Assembly: GCA_015059095.1 (NCBI GenBank)
Contig: SVBA01000006.1
Span: 17,003 to 81,002, forward strand
Direction of reading: 5' to 3'
DNA: 64,000 bases
Source of the DNA: Erysipelotrichaceae bacterium
GTDB lineage: Bacteria > Bacillota_I > Bacilli_A > RFN20 > CAG-449
Below, piece by piece: positions 2,943 to 63,900 of the stretch. The translations under genes and the position numbers were made by a program. The notes beneath the pieces were generated by a model that did not search any database, was not told the DNA's origin, and was given only the letters and a program-made list of their open reading frames with translations. Numbering within the stretch: position 1 is the stretch's first letter; each line of letters opens with the position of its first letter.

Positions 2943-4046
2943 CTAAACATTAAATCTGAATAGTAAGCAATCGCCATCTTTAACTTTATATGCTTTACCT
3001 TCAGTTCTAATTTTTCCATTTTCTTTTAACACTTTTTCAGTCTTTAGTTCTTCAATATCTTCATATGCATAAACTTCTGCACAGATAAATCCTCTTTCAA
3101 AATCTGTATGAATTGTACCTGCACATTGAGGCGCTGACATACCAAGAGTAAAGTTCCATGCTCTAACTTCATCTGCTCCTACTGTAAAGAATGTAGATAG
3201 ATTCAATAACTTATAAGTAATCTTAACTAGTCTATCTAATCCAGTAGCAGTGACTCCTAATGCATTTAAATATTCCGTTTTTTCTTCTAAAGGCAATTGA
3301 GATAATTCTTCCTCAATATTCGCGCAAATTGCTATTACTTCACTACCTTCACTTTGAGCGTATTCTTTAACTTGCTGATAATAAGATGAAGCATCTGGAT
3401 CAGCATAATCATCTTCTGTAACATTCGCAACATAAACAACTGGTTTCATAGTTAACAAATTAAATGAACTGATTAATGATAATTCATCAGAATTAAATTC
3501 TAAACTTCTCGCAGGTTTTTCATTAACTAATACTTCTTTAATTTTTGTTAAAACATTGCATTCTGCTACTGAATCTTTGTCTTTTGCAGTTCTTGCTTTT
3601 GTTTCAACTTTAGCTAATCTTTTTTCAACAATTTCTAAATCTGAAAGAATTAATTCTAAGTTAATTGTTTCAATATCTCTACGAGGGTCAACAGTATTAT
3701 CAACATGAATAATATCAGGGTTATCAAAGCATCTAACAACATGACAAATCGCATCACAATTTCTAATATTACCTAAGAACTGGTTACCTAATCCTTCACC
3801 TTTTGACGCACCTTTAACTAAACCAGCAATATCTGTAAATTCGCAAGTTGCCTTTACAGTTCTTTTAGGTTGAAATAACGAAACTAAAACATCAACTCTA
3901 GGATCATTAACTTCTACAATACCAGAATTTGGTTTAATAGTTGCAAATGGATAATTAGCAGCCTCTACATTTGAATTTGTAATTGCGTTAAACAAAGTAG
4001 ATTTACCTACGTTTGGTAATCCAACAATTCCTGCTTTTAATGCCAT
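2943..4046 (-). CDS. ychF: Ribosome-binding ATPase YchF/Ola1
   Basis: It has the P-loop GLPNVGKSTLFNA and a C-terminal TGS-like domain. The likely start is the ATG at 4046, preceded by GGAGG. The ORF track begins 15 nt upstream at a TTG codon. Confidence 0.9.
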   Translation of the reverse strand: MALKAGIVGLPNVGKSTLFNAITNSNVEAANYPFATIKPNSGIVEVNDPRVDVLVSLFQPKRTVKATCEFTDIAGLVKGASKGEGLGNQFLGNIRNCDAICHVVRCFDNPDIIHVDNTVDPRRDIETINLELILSDLEIVEKRLAKVETKARTAKDKDSVAECNVLTKIKEVLVNEKPARSLEFNSDELSLISSFNLLTMKPVVYVANVTEDDYADPDASSYYQQVKEYAQSEGSEVIAICANIEEELSQLPLEEKTEYLNALGVTATGLDRLVKITYKLLNLSTFFTVGADEVRAWNFTLGMSAPQCAGTIHTDFERGFICAEVYAYEDIEELKTEKVLKENGKIRTEGKAYKVKDGDCLLFRFNV

Positions 4047-59883: not shown

Positions 59884-60816
59884 TTATATTAATTTATCAA
59901 ATCGTTTCTGAATTAATTCTTTCAATTCTTCTTTTTTCTCTTCTGGTATATAAGAATCATTAATATAATCAAACATTTTTTCTTTTTTAGCAAATAATCT
60001 AATAATTAATTTTTCAACAGTCTTTCTAGGTATTTCTAGATTATCTGCAAGTTTATAAAAATCATTTTTCGTTAGATTTTTCTTTTTTCCATTTAAAGTT
60101 AAAGCCATATCTTCATTATCATTAATAATTAGTTGAACTGGAAGTAAATCATAAGCTTCACTTAAAGAAAAACCATCTTTAGTTTCCTTCAAAGAAAAAT
60201 TTTTAAGATGCATATCTGAATTGCCAACAATGTAACAAAATAGTAATCTATAAATTAATTCAACTTGATCAATATAAGGTGTCGAAGAATAATTTTTAAT
60301 TATTTTACCACATTTTTCATATGAACTATTATACTTATATTCAGTAGGTCGATTAGATAGTTGACAAAAATCTTCCATATGTATTTTATTAACATCGTCT
60401 CTATCTATCCTTTTAGTTATATATGCATAATTATTATCACCTATATCAATTAAGGCATTTGGAGTAGTTTTTATCAAACAAATATTTGCTAATCCCATAA
60501 TTAAATGTTCAGCTTCTGCAATAAATGAATATTGTTCAGAATTTGGTTTTAAGATATATCCTTGTGGATATCCAATTAATGTTAATCTCGTACCATTTTT
60601 TTCTTTATCAAGATGCATTGATAATTTTCTTTGAACACCTGTAATACTTTTTGATTCTTCAATAAGTTTTTCGCCTAGTTTTTTCATTTCTTCATCTATC
60701 GTTTTTAAATTTACTAGTGGAAGTGTATCAGAATTAAAAAATCTTTTTATACATGCTTTATGCCAAGAATTAATATGATCTTTTTTTATTTCTTTTCCAC
60801 AACATAAGCACCTCAT
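59884..60816 (-). CDS. HipT-like Ser/Thr kinase toxin (HipA core/C-terminal domains without N-subdomain 1)
   Basis: The Gly-rich phosphate-binding loop is SITGVQRKLSM. The catalytic motif GNSDMHLKNFSL is of the HipA type. The product is 310 aa. The N-terminus is Cys/His-rich (CLCCG...H...H..C). It is immediately downstream of the HipS-like gene. Confidence 0.75.
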   Translation of the reverse strand: MRCLCCGKEIKKDHINSWHKACIKRFFNSDTLPLVNLKTIDEEMKKLGEKLIEESKSITGVQRKLSMHLDKEKNGTRLTLIGYPQGYILKPNSEQYSFIAEAEHLIMGLANICLIKTTPNALIDIGDNNYAYITKRIDRDDVNKIHMEDFCQLSNRPTEYKYNSSYEKCGKIIKNYSSTPYIDQVELIYRLLFCYIVGNSDMHLKNFSLKETKDGFSLSEAYDLLPVQLIINDNEDMALTLNGKKKNLTKNDFYKLADNLEIPRKTVEKLIIRLFAKKEKMFDYINDSYIPEEKKEELKELIQKRFDKLI

Positions 60817-60817
60817 A

Positions 60818-61138
60818 TTACTTAACCCCTTTCACAGAAACAGCACCAATAGTGTCTTCACATACACTTAATAATAATCCCATTCTATCATTAATATCTA
60901 CTTTCCATTTTCGATGCGCAATTTCTAAAAGCCATCCTTCAGGAATAATACCATCAAAAAATGGAAAAAGAATATTACTCTCATAAGTTTCACTAGTCAA
61001 AGGTAAGGTCAACGAAACAGCTTTAGCATCCTCTCTTTTTAGATACTCTTGATAATATGAAAACAAATAGCTTCCATCTGTTTCAACTATTTCACCACAT
61101 GGAATGTTATTATAATACACTATTCCTCTTCTATTCAT
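60818..61138 (-). CDS. HipS-like protein (stand-alone HipA N-terminal subdomain)
   Basis: It is 106 aa. VYYNNIPCGEIVETDGSYLFSY...LPEGW resembles the HipA N-terminal (couple_hipA) domain. It overlaps the hipB-like gene by 8 nt and lies 1 nt from the hipT-like gene. Confidence 0.7.
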   Translation of the reverse strand: MNRRGIVYYNNIPCGEIVETDGSYLFSYYQEYLKREDAKAVSLTLPLTSETYESNILFPFFDGIIPEGWLLEIAHRKWKVDINDRMGLLLSVCEDTIGAVSVKGVK

Positions 61139-61352
61139 CTTTTTCCTTCTTTCTATATGTTACAACACAATTAAACATACTTAATGCATGATTTACTTTA
61201 TCAAGTCTAACAGTAGTTTTTCCTTGTTCCAATTCCCTTACAAATCTTAAACCTAAGCCTGATTTTAAAGCAAACTCTTCTTGAGTTAATCCATATTCTT
61301 TTCTTTTCATTTTTATAAATTTTGAAATATCATTATTTTTATTCTTTTCCAT
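61131..61352 (-). CDS. HipB-like XRE-family HTH protein
   Basis: It is 73 aa. The HTH region is YGLTQEEFALKSGLGLRFVRELEQGK. It is the first gene of the three-gene module. Confidence 0.65.
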   Translation of the reverse strand: MEKNKNNDISKFIKMKRKEYGLTQEEFALKSGLGLRFVRELEQGKTTVRLDKVNHALSMFNCVVTYRKKEKDE

Positions 61353-61489: not shown

Positions 61490-61837
61490 TTAAAGAATTT
61501 CTTTAAGACGTGCGCTCTTGCCTGATCTTGTACGTAAGAAGTAGATTTTCTTTCTTCTAACCTTACCATGTTTTAATACTTCGATCGAAGCAATAGATGG
61601 GGAGTTTACTGGGAATGTTCTTTCTACACCAATACCAGATGACATTTTTCTTACGATAAATGTTTCGCCAACTCCTGAGCCGCGACGTGAAATGACAACA
61701 CCTTGGAATACTTGGATTCTTGATTTGCCACCTTCAATAATTCTAACGTTAACTTTAATAGTGTCACCAGTAACGAATTTTGGTAAATCAGTTCTGATTT
61801 GTGACTTAGTGATTTGTGCTACTAAATTGTTATTCAT
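61490..61837 (-). CDS. rplS: 50S ribosomal protein L19
   Basis: It is 115 aa. [29 protein letters not shown] is diagnostic of L19. The RBS is GAAAGGAG. Confidence 0.95.
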
Positions 61838-62164
61838 AATTGAAACACGCTCCTTTCAAGTCAATATTTGTCGGATTCATAATTTGTAGATATTAGAGGA
61901 ATCTAACAACATGTTTTACCATGCGTGTTAATAATATCAAAGTATAAAACATATTTCAAGTAAAATTTGCAATTACTAAAATTTAATTTATCAATTAAAT
62001 AAATCTCTTAAAACACAAAAATCCCAAATTATTATCAAATATATTTCTTTTTAGTCTCATCTATATAATATAGAGAAAAAATGAGAATAATTTATTACAA
62101 AAATTACACTTTTTAAACACTTTTTGGGACTTTTTTGATAATATCCTCTTTTTTGCGATTTTCT

Positions 62165-62193
62165 TTGAAAAATACACTTTTCTCTAATATGAT
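62165..62193 (+). promoter_or_regulatory. Putative sigma-A promoter of a small orphan transcription unit
   Basis: TTGAAA is followed by 17 nt and then TATGAT. The predicted TSS is near 62200. Confidence 0.35.
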
Positions 62194-62302
62194 ATATTTG
62201 TCACTTAGGTGACTAGTCAAAGGAGTGTACGGCATGATAAGGAGCGTCTTCAGGGTACCATAGGCGCGAAAGGAGATTTACTAAGTGGAATTCTACTTAG
62301 TA

Positions 62303-62365
62303 ATGTTTACTATTATATTAGTCGTTATCGGCTACATATATACTAGACAAACTACCAAAAATTAG
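62303..62365 (+). CDS. Candidate 20-aa hydrophobic peptide MFTIILVVIGYIYTRQTTKN
   Basis: I translated it by hand. The SD GAAAGGAG (62268-62275) sits 7 nt from the ATG only if the intervening 20-nt hairpin CTAAGTGGAATTCTACTTAG is formed. It is preceded by a 9-codon ORF (62234-62263, MIRSVFRVP) with its own AAAGGAG at 8 nt spacing. Confidence 0.25.
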   Translation: MFTIILVVIGYIYTRQTTKN

Positions 62366-62408
62366 TAGTTAATCTACTTACGTGCCTGTATTATCCTAAA
62401 ACGAAGCA

Positions 62409-62446
62409 AAAGGATTAGGGCTGCTACCTAATCCTTTTGTATTTGT
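62409..62446. terminator. Strong GC-containing hairpin with T-rich tail, probably the terminator of the small transcription unit
   Basis: A perfect 12-bp stem AAAAGGATTAGG/CCTAATCCTTTT with loop GCTGCTA is followed by GTATTTG on the plus strand. On the minus strand it is followed by CUUCGUUUU. Confidence 0.45.
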
Positions 62447-62641
62447 GATATCTACTTACATGCTCACAATGTTATTATATTAAACTTTCTTCTATTATTC
62501 AACGTTTTCAACGAATATTATAAATATTTCAAACAAAATTATTACTCGATTACATAATATATTTTTACTCAATTTTATAAGAATCATTTTTTTCTGAACA
62601 AAAATTCGATAGTGTTTCCATCCTATATTCTTCAATAATTA

Positions 62642-63199
62642 TTAAATACTATTATCTAATGCATCATACATCTTTTTAAACGCTTTACCACAATATTCTT
62701 GAGTATTTAAAATAAGTTGTTCTAATCCACTAATTGTTCTTGATAAAGAATTTAACTTAGAAAAATAATCTCTACCAATAGTATAGTCAACATTTCTTAA
62801 TGTCACATCTAATTTATATGCTATTTCAAAAGCATTATAATCATATTTTTTACAAGCGTTAATGACTTGACTACTATATAAAATAATTTCTTGGAAGTCC
62901 TTATCATTTTCTTTTAAATAAATCGATAATACTTGAAAATAATAATATTTATCTACTTCTTTTTTAAAAGATTCATAAGTAGATGGAATTCTATTTTCAA
63001 TTCTACTAATAAAATTAGATGTTCTATCTACTATTTCAAAACACTTATCTGCAGCTTTTTGATCAATTAAAAGCATACTTACCCCAATCTTTTCAAAATA
63101 GTCAACTGCAGCAGCAATATTTTGATTTTTCAATAATCTAAGCGTTTCAATATAATTTCTTTTCATTTCTTTTAAATTTTCTTTAGTCATTTTAGCCAT
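62642..63199 (-). CDS. Hypothetical protein (185 aa, predicted all-alpha, no recognisable family)
   Basis: It is an intact ORF preceded by AGGTAAAATAGT ATG (SD AAGGTAA). It lies in the non-syntenic stretch between rplS and rpsP. Confidence 0.5.
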   Translation of the reverse strand: MAKMTKENLKEMKRNYIETLRLLKNQNIAAAVDYFEKIGVSMLLIDQKAADKCFEIVDRTSNFISRIENRIPSTYESFKKEVDKYYYFQVLSIYLKENDKDFQEIILYSSQVINACKKYDYNAFEIAYKLDVTLRNVDYTIGRDYFSKLNSLSRTISGLEQLILNTQEYCGKAFKKMYDALDNSI

Positions 63200-63289
63200 A
63201 CTATTTTACCTTCTTATTAATTAAATTATAAACAATTCTCCATTATACTTCTATAAATAAATAATTTTATATCTGTTAAGCAAAAACAC

Positions 63290-63318
63290 TTGACACCATT
63301 AATATAATAGTTTATTAT
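63290..63318 (+). promoter_or_regulatory. Putative sigma-A promoter of the rpsP operon
   Basis: A perfect TTGACA is followed by 17 nt and then TATTAT. The AGGAGG RBS lies 9 nt before the rpsP ATG. Confidence 0.45.
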
Positions 63319-63349
63319 ATCAAAGTGTTAAAAATAGGAGGCTAGAAAT

Positions 63350-63628
63350 ATGGCAGTAAAAATTAGATTAACAAGAACAGGTCGTCACGATGATGCATCT
63401 TACAGAATCGTAGTTGCAGATTCAAGATCACCAAGAGATGGTAGATACATTGAACAAGTTGGATACTATGCTCCAAAAGCTCAAGGTGCTACTCCAGCAT
63501 TAAAATTAGAAAAAGAAAAAATCTTAGGTTGGTTAGAAAAAGGTGCTACACCATCTGACACAGTAAGATCAATTCTTTCACACGAAGGTATCTTAAAAGA
63601 ATTTGCTGATAAAAAAGCATCTAAATAG
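63350..63628 (+). CDS. rpsP: 30S ribosomal protein S16
   Basis: [40 protein letters not shown] is the canonical S16 N-terminus. Confidence 0.95.
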
Positions 63629-63639
63629 GAGTCCTATTT

Positions 63640-63900
63640 ATGGATTACATTAGTGCAATTCACAAGTTCATTGATCCAATTGTAGTCAAAAAAGATCAAG
63701 TTGTTATTACAGAATTACCAAATGAAAATCCAAAAGATCGTACTTTCTTAATCAAATGTGAAAAAGACGATGCAGGTAGATTAATTGGTAAAAAAGGTAT
63801 CACTGCTGATGCATTAAGAGAAGTTCTTTCAGTCGCAGGTAAAATGAATAACGAAAGAGTTCACATTAAATTTGTATCAGAAGAAACTGTTAGTGAATAA
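63640..63900 (+). CDS. KH-domain RNA-binding protein (YlqC-like)
   Basis: It is 86 aa. The KH core is GRLIGKKGITADALREVL. It sits immediately downstream of rpsP, as in Firmicutes. Confidence 0.85.
   Translation: MDYISAIHKFIDPIVVKKDQVVITELPNENPKDRTFLIKCEKDDAGRLIGKKGITADALREVLSVAGKMNNERVHIKFVSEETVSE

Follow-up and report, generated by a model that had tools for sequence, protein, structure and literature searches.

A 64,000-nucleotide (nt) stretch of DNA from an Erysipelotrichaceae bacterium (contig SVBA01000006.1, positions 17,003 to 81,002; hereafter the window) carries, at positions 62,165 to 62,446, a short unit that raises a simple question: what is a promoter-to-terminator segment doing that holds two micro open reading frames (ORFs) and leads into no gene? 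The original prediction, made from the letters of the window, left three answers side by side, namely a membrane peptide resembling type I toxins with its regulator encoded in cis, a dual-function small RNA and an unrecognised riboregulator. The unit is real and non-random, and its sequence features make it probable, in our judgement, that it represents a candidate new family of type I toxin-antitoxin systems, with a par/Fst-like layout in which the repeat is placed in an anti-Shine-Dalgarno (anti-SD) element of the 3' untranslated region (3' UTR). The first of the three answers is thus the one we favour, with transcripts and toxicity as predictions; its regulator would be a predicted convergent antisense RNA of about 70 nt that carries the complement of the repeat, an arrangement that recurs in a paralogue and whose repeats co-vary in one allele. 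The riboregulator and dual-function RNA answers lose ground because, of all the ORFs, only a hydrophobic one is shared by both paralogues.

The predicted peptide mRNA spans about 248 nt on the plus strand (62200-62447) from promoter to terminator. Its promoter, TTGAAA-17-TATGAT (62165-62193, plus strand), stands as a near-consensus site scoring 10/12 in a consensus scan. By itself the match is weak evidence, given that this AT-rich region has many promoter-like sites (29 found, 13 expected); among alleles of the unit, recovered on contigs from other samples through exact L19, S16 and KH proteins, both hexamers are invariant, with 7 substitutions in the 17-nt spacer between them. The contig is seen again in many JGI, ENA and Logan assemblies. 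The GC enrichment of the unit was likewise borne out (33-37%, compared with 18-25% in the flanking intergenic DNA), as was its density of hairpins: the RNA from 62200 to 62450 folds at -88.5 kcal/mol (z = -8.1), and 0 of 200 shuffled sequences were as stable. At the 5' end the fold prediction places a hairpin, GTCAC-TTAG-GTGAC (62200-62213, plus strand), in which allelic changes fall only in loops. At the 3' end lies the perfect stem-loop described earlier as a 12-bp terminator, which has 13 pairs and would work in both directions, since the hairpin (62406-62440) scores as an intrinsic terminator on each strand. Over 8 distinct allele and paralogue sequences its stem comprises 14 pairs, 2 with compensatory changes, around a hypervariable loop.

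Both micro-ORFs described in the unit exist, with one revision that matters for the second. The upstream ORF (uORF), MIRSVFRVP, occupies 62219-62263 on the plus strand together with its Shine-Dalgarno sequence (SD1, AAAGGAG), and is well spaced as claimed, with GGAG 8 nt before the ATG at 62234 and the TAG at 62261-62263. The hydrophobic ORF, MEFYLVMFTIILVVIGYIYTRQTTKN (62285-62365, plus strand), does encode 20 residues from the ATG at 62303, but its frame is also open from a GTG at 62285, giving 26 residues. The second Shine-Dalgarno region (SD2), GCGCGAAAGGAGATT (62264-62278, plus strand), contains GGAG at 62272-62275, 9 nt from the GTG and 27 nt from the ATG. It had been proposed that a hairpin folds away the intervening bases and brings this SD to 7 nt from the ATG. 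The hairpin in question (62278-62303, plus strand) would leave about 2 nt, its last base being the A of the ATG, and it buries the GTG, which in both paralogues lies in frame exactly 9 nt after GGAG. Because a start at ordinary SD spacing is available, the bridging hairpin is unnecessary and we rejected it in favour of the simpler GTG start. The small hairpin AGTAG-TTAAT-CTACT is present at 62364-62378 (plus strand), overlapping the stop codon rather than following it. A 45-aa ORF that overlaps these elements (62209-62346) was discarded, as it is not kept in the paralogue. The peptide itself has a hydrophobic core of about 17 residues followed by a polar and basic tail, features that the paralogue retains, and in this the locus has the small (<60 aa) hydrophobic peptide gene of type I systems.

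A second copy of the module, found by tblastn and nhmmer on contigs fetched around the locus, shows what is kept. This paralogue (copy 2) lies just beyond the end of the window, on the 103.8-kb metagenome contig that also carries copy 1; it has the same orientation as copy 1, is separated from it by about 3.6 kb and follows trmD and a 148-aa gene (L011 ~1345-1000, minus strand; window-equivalent ~65855-66200). It repeats the order of elements of copy 1 in a mostly different sequence. An extended -10 element, TGTTAAAAT, sits at the position equivalent to the copy 1 promoter, and its sole change among copy 2 alleles is the free 'n' of TGn. A 9-bp hairpin unrelated to that of copy 1 directly follows the -10 box, and an AGGAG then leads an 8-codon uORF, MKHNHWYR, with 9 nt between its end and the second SD. 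After GGAG and 9 nt comes an in-frame GTG within the hairpin TACCAAGT-GAAAT-ACTTGGTA, followed by an ATG. The peptide, V(K/E)YLVMTIVILTLICYLFTIKSTSNK, has 26 residues from the GTG, and its gene is followed by a stop-codon hairpin (TCTACTT-CTAAT-AAGTAGA) and a bidirectional terminator (AAAAGGACTAGG-N7-CCCAGTCCTTTT). The copy 2 mRNA also folds tightly (-93.6 kcal/mol, z = -9.5). Copy 2 shares its terminator with a convergent gene for a very large Hint-domain protein (1807 aa in L186). No third copy of the module was found in the window or in the 10 kb upstream.

What the two copies share is informative. Over the tblastn match, 11 of 23 residues of the hydrophobic peptides are identical, and this is the sole ORF kept in both (frame, 26-residue length and 9-nt SD spacing), which disfavours purely non-coding readings. 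Between GTG and ATG the paralogues differ by 3 nt, in frame. The start hairpin shows a compensatory exchange of a U-A for a C-G pair (CUAAGU/ACUUAG in copy 1, CCAAGU/ACUUGG in copy 2), one side of which is a synonymous change in a Leu codon. The uORF, by comparison, is conserved in presence and not in sequence: its peptides in the two copies are unrelated, and in both it is SD-led, has 8-9 codons and ends 5-9 nt before the SD motif of the putative toxin gene without overlapping that gene.

An RNA-based regulator is suggested by a pair of direct repeats that brackets the terminator. At copy 1 the repeats are 14 nt long; the proximal one, ATCTACTTACGTGC (62372-62385, plus strand), lies in the 3' UTR, is invariant in 8 alleles and is a predicted anti-SD and antisense target, and the distal one, ATCTACTTACATGC (62450-62463, minus strand), is the template for the 5' segment of the predicted antisense RNA. 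Just outside it is the predicted promoter of that RNA, TTGAAT-17-TATAAT (62474-62502, minus strand), which scores 10/12, is invariant in all alleles and points into the terminator; promoter and terminator together delimit a putative antitoxin RNA of about 70 nt (62395-62467, minus strand), with a predicted fold of -21.9 kcal/mol (z = -3.6). Because transcription is convergent, this RNA would carry GCAUGUAAGUAGAU, complementary to the 3' UTR of the mRNA, and its fold places that segment in a hairpin loop. The lone G/A difference between the two copy 1 repeats becomes a G-U pair in the RNA-RNA duplex. In copy 2 a 15-nt repeat, CTCTTCATTGCATGT, lies on both sides of the terminator, so that the repeat pairs differ between the loci (ATCTACTTACRTGC in copy 1), and an outward-facing TGTATAAT box is conserved 8 nt beyond the distal repeat, the sequence upstream of the box being diverged. 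The antisense complementarity of type I systems is therefore present, at the sequence level, in both paralogues. Such repeats are not a common property of hairpins in these genomes: of the 54 perfect hairpins with GC content compared across about 250 kb of source and related genomes, only those of the two modules have flanking repeats of at least 11 nt, with one exception, an AT-only match.

Where does the repeat act? In copy 1, bases 62264-62278 can pair with 62371-62385 at 13 of 15 positions (GCGCGAAAGGAGAUU with AAUCUACUUACGUGC), and a fold forced to hold this SD2 helix reaches -87.1 kcal/mol, only 1.4 above the minimum of -88.5. In the predicted ensemble, 0.32 of the pairing of the proximal repeat is with the SD2 region and 0.40 with the region of the uORF start. 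In the paralogue the repeat pairs with the SD2-equivalent region with a probability of 0.93, within a helix of about 19 bp in which the proximal repeat and the bases that follow it cover the stretch from the uORF stop through the GGGAGG SD. The distance from the stop codon to the mRNA repeat is 7 nt in copy 1 and about 70 nt in copy 2. As the proximal repeat can pair with the SD region in both copies, we read it as a 3'-UTR anti-SD, and in our model the antisense RNA, with a 5' end that mimics an SD, would compete for this element. Copy 1 contains the heptamer CTACTTA at three places, in the 3' arm of the start hairpin (62293-62299) and in both repeats (62374-62380 and 62452-62458). Given its presence in the start hairpin, the antisense loop could also pair with the 8 nt just upstream of the ATG at 62303; no equivalent match was seen in the paralogue. 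At the 3' end of the mRNA, cofolding predicts an antisense-mRNA duplex of about 50 bp and nothing else, since it is unable to represent the terminator and repeat pairings together, their topology being crossed; the mechanism is thus not settled by cofolding.

The alleles (95-98% identical for copy 1, 91-99% for copy 2) show where change is accepted and where it is not. In copy 1, no allele departs in the 5' UTR, in either repeat or in the antisense promoter, and the terminator stem is intact around its hypervariable loop; the ORF shows one synonymous substitution plus two conservative ones (T>S and R>K). Divergence of the transcribed unit amounts to 1.6-3.6%, mostly in the terminator loop; in most alleles the flanking intergenic DNA differs by about 3-8%, and in L187 the figure goes up to 24% on the side of the antisense promoter. 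In the copy 2 allele on contig L188, the 3' UTR between stop hairpin and repeat is heavily diverged and both repeat copies are altered in concert, from CTCTTC... to CCTTTC..., a change that preserves the 15-nt match and yields a perfect complement of GGGAGG. The module as a whole is also polymorphic in presence. A segment of about 550 bp (62010-62557) that holds all of it is missing from L002, L003 and L010, which belong to a related lineage with 82-94% identical flanks (94% around rplS, 82-83% in the 185-aa gene on the other side) and which join ~62009 to ~62558, so that the 185-aa gene runs almost straight into the rplS promoter. Imperfect 25-nt direct repeats (80%) of the -35 region of the rplS promoter flank the polymorphic segment at 61943-61967 and 62516-62540, and may have allowed the module to be gained or lost by recombination.

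What the sequences show directly is the layout, its return in copy 2, the linked repeat changes and the variable presence of the segment; the transcripts, their translation, toxicity and the direction of regulation are part of a model. Taken as a type I system, the locus would work as follows. A promoter of the sigma-70 type would produce an mRNA of about 250 nt consisting of the 5' hairpin, the uORF, SD2, the GUG-started ORF and a 3' UTR with the terminator. The predicted product is a peptide of 26 residues, one hydrophobic helix with a short polar and basic tail, and the in-frame AUG could yield a form of 20 residues. The full-length mRNA would be closed for translation, with the GUG held in its local hairpin and the SD region paired with the 14-15-nt anti-SD of the 3' UTR. 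The uORF stop would fall immediately before, or within, the 5' strand of this long-range helix; a ribosome terminating there would open the helix, so the uORF probably couples translation in a mok-like manner. From the minus-strand promoter just outside the terminator, an RNA of about 60-70 nt would be made. It would share the bidirectional terminator with the mRNA, to whose 3' end it would be complementary throughout, and it could pair through its 5' segment with the anti-SD. This RNA is the presumed antitoxin, and we infer the direction of regulation accordingly as repression: it would contact the mRNA via the complementary terminator stem-loops and the repeat, probably preferring the opened conformer with its free anti-SD, and the mRNA would be neutralised by cleavage of the RNase III type or by decay of the duplex, a step that we assume from txpA/RatA and bsrG/SR4. 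It is tempting to go further and to speculate that the locus uses a new principle of control, in which the antitoxin recognises, in place of the toxin start, an anti-SD that becomes exposed only once the mRNA is open for translation (by the ribosome on the leader ORF, for example) and so destroys the active conformer selectively, or in which an anti-anti-SD switch turns the peptide on; we regard this extension as rather doubtful.

Several observations weigh against a toxin-antitoxin system. At face value the repeat complementarity falls on the 3'-UTR anti-SD, so that binding of the antisense RNA would free the SD, the opposite of what an antitoxin does, and the model is saved by a degradation step that is itself assumed. 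The partner of the repeat region in the minimum-energy fold of copy 1 is the uORF start and not SD2. The same L188 contig that carries the concerted repeat change in copy 2 has a premature stop in copy 1 (L188 ~3990-4010), where Q22 is replaced by a stop codon (CAA>TAA, window 62348-62350) and the peptide ends after residue 21 (…YIYSK*), which is compatible with the decay of a dispensable gene. The peptide has no match to toxin families in Pfam, NCBIfam (E<=10) or PADLOC. Finally, members are known from one species-level lineage only (two loci and their alleles), and scans of viral and metagenome contigs with sequence patterns found no more.

The searches behind the last point were of several kinds. 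Rfam gave nothing relevant for either paralogue at E<=10, nor for the whole window at the gathering threshold. By blastn the unit matched no plasmid and, among phages, only a single 47-nt stretch by chance, and tblastn of the peptides against plasmids and phages returned no match. Nine variants of the peptide were looked up as exact sequences among some 15 billion predicted proteins and none is on record, and the unit was not found at the rplS loci of the relatives with 88% and 84% identical L19. Degenerate DNA patterns built from both paralogous peptides and the SD gave 0, 0, 69 and 1 matches in viral contigs, all due to chance (within longer ORFs or with stop codons), and 17 matches in one metagenome scan, again all by chance; that collection is without the source contig, Ga0318466_10004492, which makes the negative there weaker than it looks. 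Nucleotide patterns for the terminator and the start hairpin recovered only generic phage terminators and chance matches from viral contigs. Type I modules are hard to find in any case: gene callers miss peptides of such small size, and homology searches fail on sequences that vary so much. Searching the literature in full text for type I toxins from Erysipelotrichaceae found no publication.

Could the locus instead be an ordinary gene? Many small membrane proteins are non-toxic, and the unit might encode one of them behind a structured leader, the antisense RNA being the 3' end of a neighbour's mRNA and the repeats having no function in RNA-RNA contact. The neighbours lend this some weight. 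Neither the 185-aa gene nor the large gene convergent on copy 2 has a terminator of its own before the shared hairpin, and transcription of the 185-aa gene should run on across the antisense-RNA region as far as the shared terminator. What this explanation leaves unaccounted for is the repeats and the box beside them: a -10 box is kept 8-10 nt outside the distal repeat in both paralogues; the repeats differ between paralogues, match within each locus and have changed jointly in one allele; and the one mismatch between the copy 1 repeats is compatible, as G-U, only in an mRNA-antisense duplex. We therefore consider an ordinary gene unlikely.

The face-value objection raised above leads to another alternative, in which there is no toxin-antitoxin pair at all and the convergent small RNA is an activator, an anti-anti-SD that releases the SD so that a small membrane protein is made. 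Towards its 5' end the antisense RNA does resemble the SD2 region (GCAUGUAAGUAGAU and GCGCGAAAGGAGAU in copy 1, ACAUGCAAUGAAGAG and ACGUGUAAUGGGAGG in copy 2), and the two compete for the same partner, the proximal repeat. The energies of repeat pairing are also alike, at -21.3 kcal/mol (the predicted duplex of the copy 1 proximal repeat with the antisense 5' end) and -25.4 in trans as against -20.5 and -26.9 in cis. We know of no convergent activator of this kind that shares a terminator with its target. The perfect 3' overlap of about 50 nt is predicted to dominate the interaction, and a type I toxin would typically show the duplication, the presence/absence polymorphism and the tiny one-helix peptide seen here. 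In characterised Firmicute systems, moreover, such an overlap leads to RNase III cleavage (PMC4147584, PMC3834814). An activator is, in our view, distinctly unlikely.

It is highly improbable that the unit is a non-coding structured RNA, a riboregulator or small RNA in which the micro-ORFs are incidental. Its predicted structure is very strong, its 5' UTR is invariant among alleles and its uORF peptides are unrelated, all of which such an RNA would explain; but the hydrophobic ORF has kept its frame, its 26 codons, its 9-nt SD spacing and 11 of 23 residues despite nucleotide divergence, the length difference between GTG and ATG is 3 nt and in frame, and there is no Rfam match even at E<=10. 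The relic of a mobile palindromic element, a terminator hairpin inserted between target-site duplications, is scarcely credible and its origin for the repeats was rejected, for although a hairpin with 14-15-nt flanking direct repeats in a polymorphic segment looks superficially like an insertion, the same layout recurs in two diverged paralogues with different repeats, the repeats changed in concert in one allele where an old duplication would decay rather than co-vary, and the hairpin with its flanks does not recur elsewhere in the window.

A new type I family thus remains the reading we favour, and its genomic setting deserves a description. The unit had been placed between divergent rplS and rpsP; rplS (61490-61837, minus strand) does lie on one side, but the 185-aa gene on the minus strand (62642-63199) separates the unit from rpsP. 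As claimed, no plus-strand gene follows the unit before rpsP (63350), which has its own promoter. The 185-aa protein has no significant Pfam match and gave no match in a scan of the species genome collection, and in L187 its gene is split into two ORFs (140 and 75 aa). The usual rpsP-KH-rimM-trmD-rplS operon is broken in the window (61490-63900): rplS is found upstream of rpsP on the other strand and has an extended -10 promoter of its own (61959..61931), and a 148-aa gene with no Pfam match, not rplS, comes after trmD. Directly downstream of rplS, three genes on the minus strand (59884-61352) encode HTH_3 (73 aa), Couple_hipA (106 aa) and HipA_C (310 aa) proteins, which we take to be a split HipA resembling the tripartite HipBST toxin-antitoxin systems. 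The small-RNA module adjoins, across rplS, another accessory toxin-antitoxin module of HTH/HipA-N/HipA-C type, and the latter is missing from alleles L002, L003, L007 and L192 independently of the former.

As for the host, the window has a GC content of 27.9% and encodes a class B RNase P RNA. In the species genome collection, which does not include the source species itself, the best matches of L19 are uncultured Bacillales and Erysipelotrichaceae metagenome-assembled genomes, at 88% and 84% identity. A Spore_coat_YutH homologue about 8 kb upstream of the window start (L164 18680-19591) suggests that this uncultured AT-rich lineage forms spores. If our reading is right, the module would be a new family from an uncultured, very AT-rich gut lineage of Erysipelotrichaceae/Bacilli-like bacteria, from which no system of this type is known. 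In addition, a bidirectional terminator flanked by repeats beside a tiny hydrophobic ORF would be a simple, sequence-independent signature usable for screening genomes.

Among known systems, the closest in layout is par of the Enterococcus faecalis plasmid pAD1, which has convergent promoters, a toxin mRNA of about 230 nt, a short antisense RNA and a shared bidirectional terminator, and in which oppositely read direct repeats supply further complementarity, intramolecular structure hides the 5' end and the start region, and translation starts at GUG (PMC7472228). As in par/Fst (RNA I/RNA II) and the par-like loci of Firmicutes, both paralogues have predicted convergent promoters around a shared bidirectional terminator, with direct repeats outside it that are read in opposite directions, here one pair per locus. 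A predicted toxin mRNA of about 230-250 nt, a GUG start and a small single-helix peptide are further likenesses, and in both paralogues the 5' hairpin, the GUG hairpin and the SD/anti-SD helix are predicted to mask the 5' end and start region. The differences are just as clear. Where par has two repeats (DRa and DRb), the module has one, and whereas the par repeats lie over the SD and start, here the mRNA copy follows the stop codon and is a predicted anti-SD. Fst/Ldr peptides are marked by a PXXXG(C) motif, a conserved Trp and a charged C-terminal tail; those of the module have no PXXXG(C) motif, no Pro or Trp in either paralogue and no Pfam or NCBIfam match, and unlike par the module has a leader ORF. 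Because repeat position and peptide motif differ, we do not file the module as a member of Fst/par.

In txpA/RatA and bsrG/SR4 of Bacillus subtilis, the antitoxin drives decay of the toxin mRNA that depends on RNase III (PMC4147584, PMC3834814). The module resembles these systems in its convergent genes and in a transcript overlap predicted to lie only at the 3' end (PMC4147584, PMC3834814), in a putative antitoxin without complementarity to the toxin start and in an SD predicted to be held in an intramolecular helix. It departs from them in that the overlap here covers just the terminator (about 45-50 nt), with extra complementarity from the repeat outside the overlap, and in that the peptides are not homologous and shorter (26 aa, compared with 38-59 aa). 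The two in-frame starts, GUG at 62285 and AUG at 62303, recall sprG1/SprF1 of Staphylococcus aureus (PMC4147584), to which there is no sequence similarity and in comparison with which the use of both starts is here only possible.

The predicted folding of the mRNA has its counterpart in hok/mok/sok of plasmid R1, where the 3' part of the mRNA likewise folds back and closes the translation region, and where, as our model would have it here, translation of the leader ORF opens the toxin start (PMC4147584). The leader ORF of the module ends before the toxin SD, whereas in hok/mok it overlaps the toxin gene; the antisense RNA converges at the 3' end, whereas in hok/sok it covers the leader start; and the peptide does not belong to the Hok/Gef family (no Pfam match), in a host of Gram-positive type. 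The locus would therefore unite three devices that belong to separate systems: the repeat and shared terminator of par, the fold-back and leader ORF of hok, and the 3' overlap of the Bacillus pairs.

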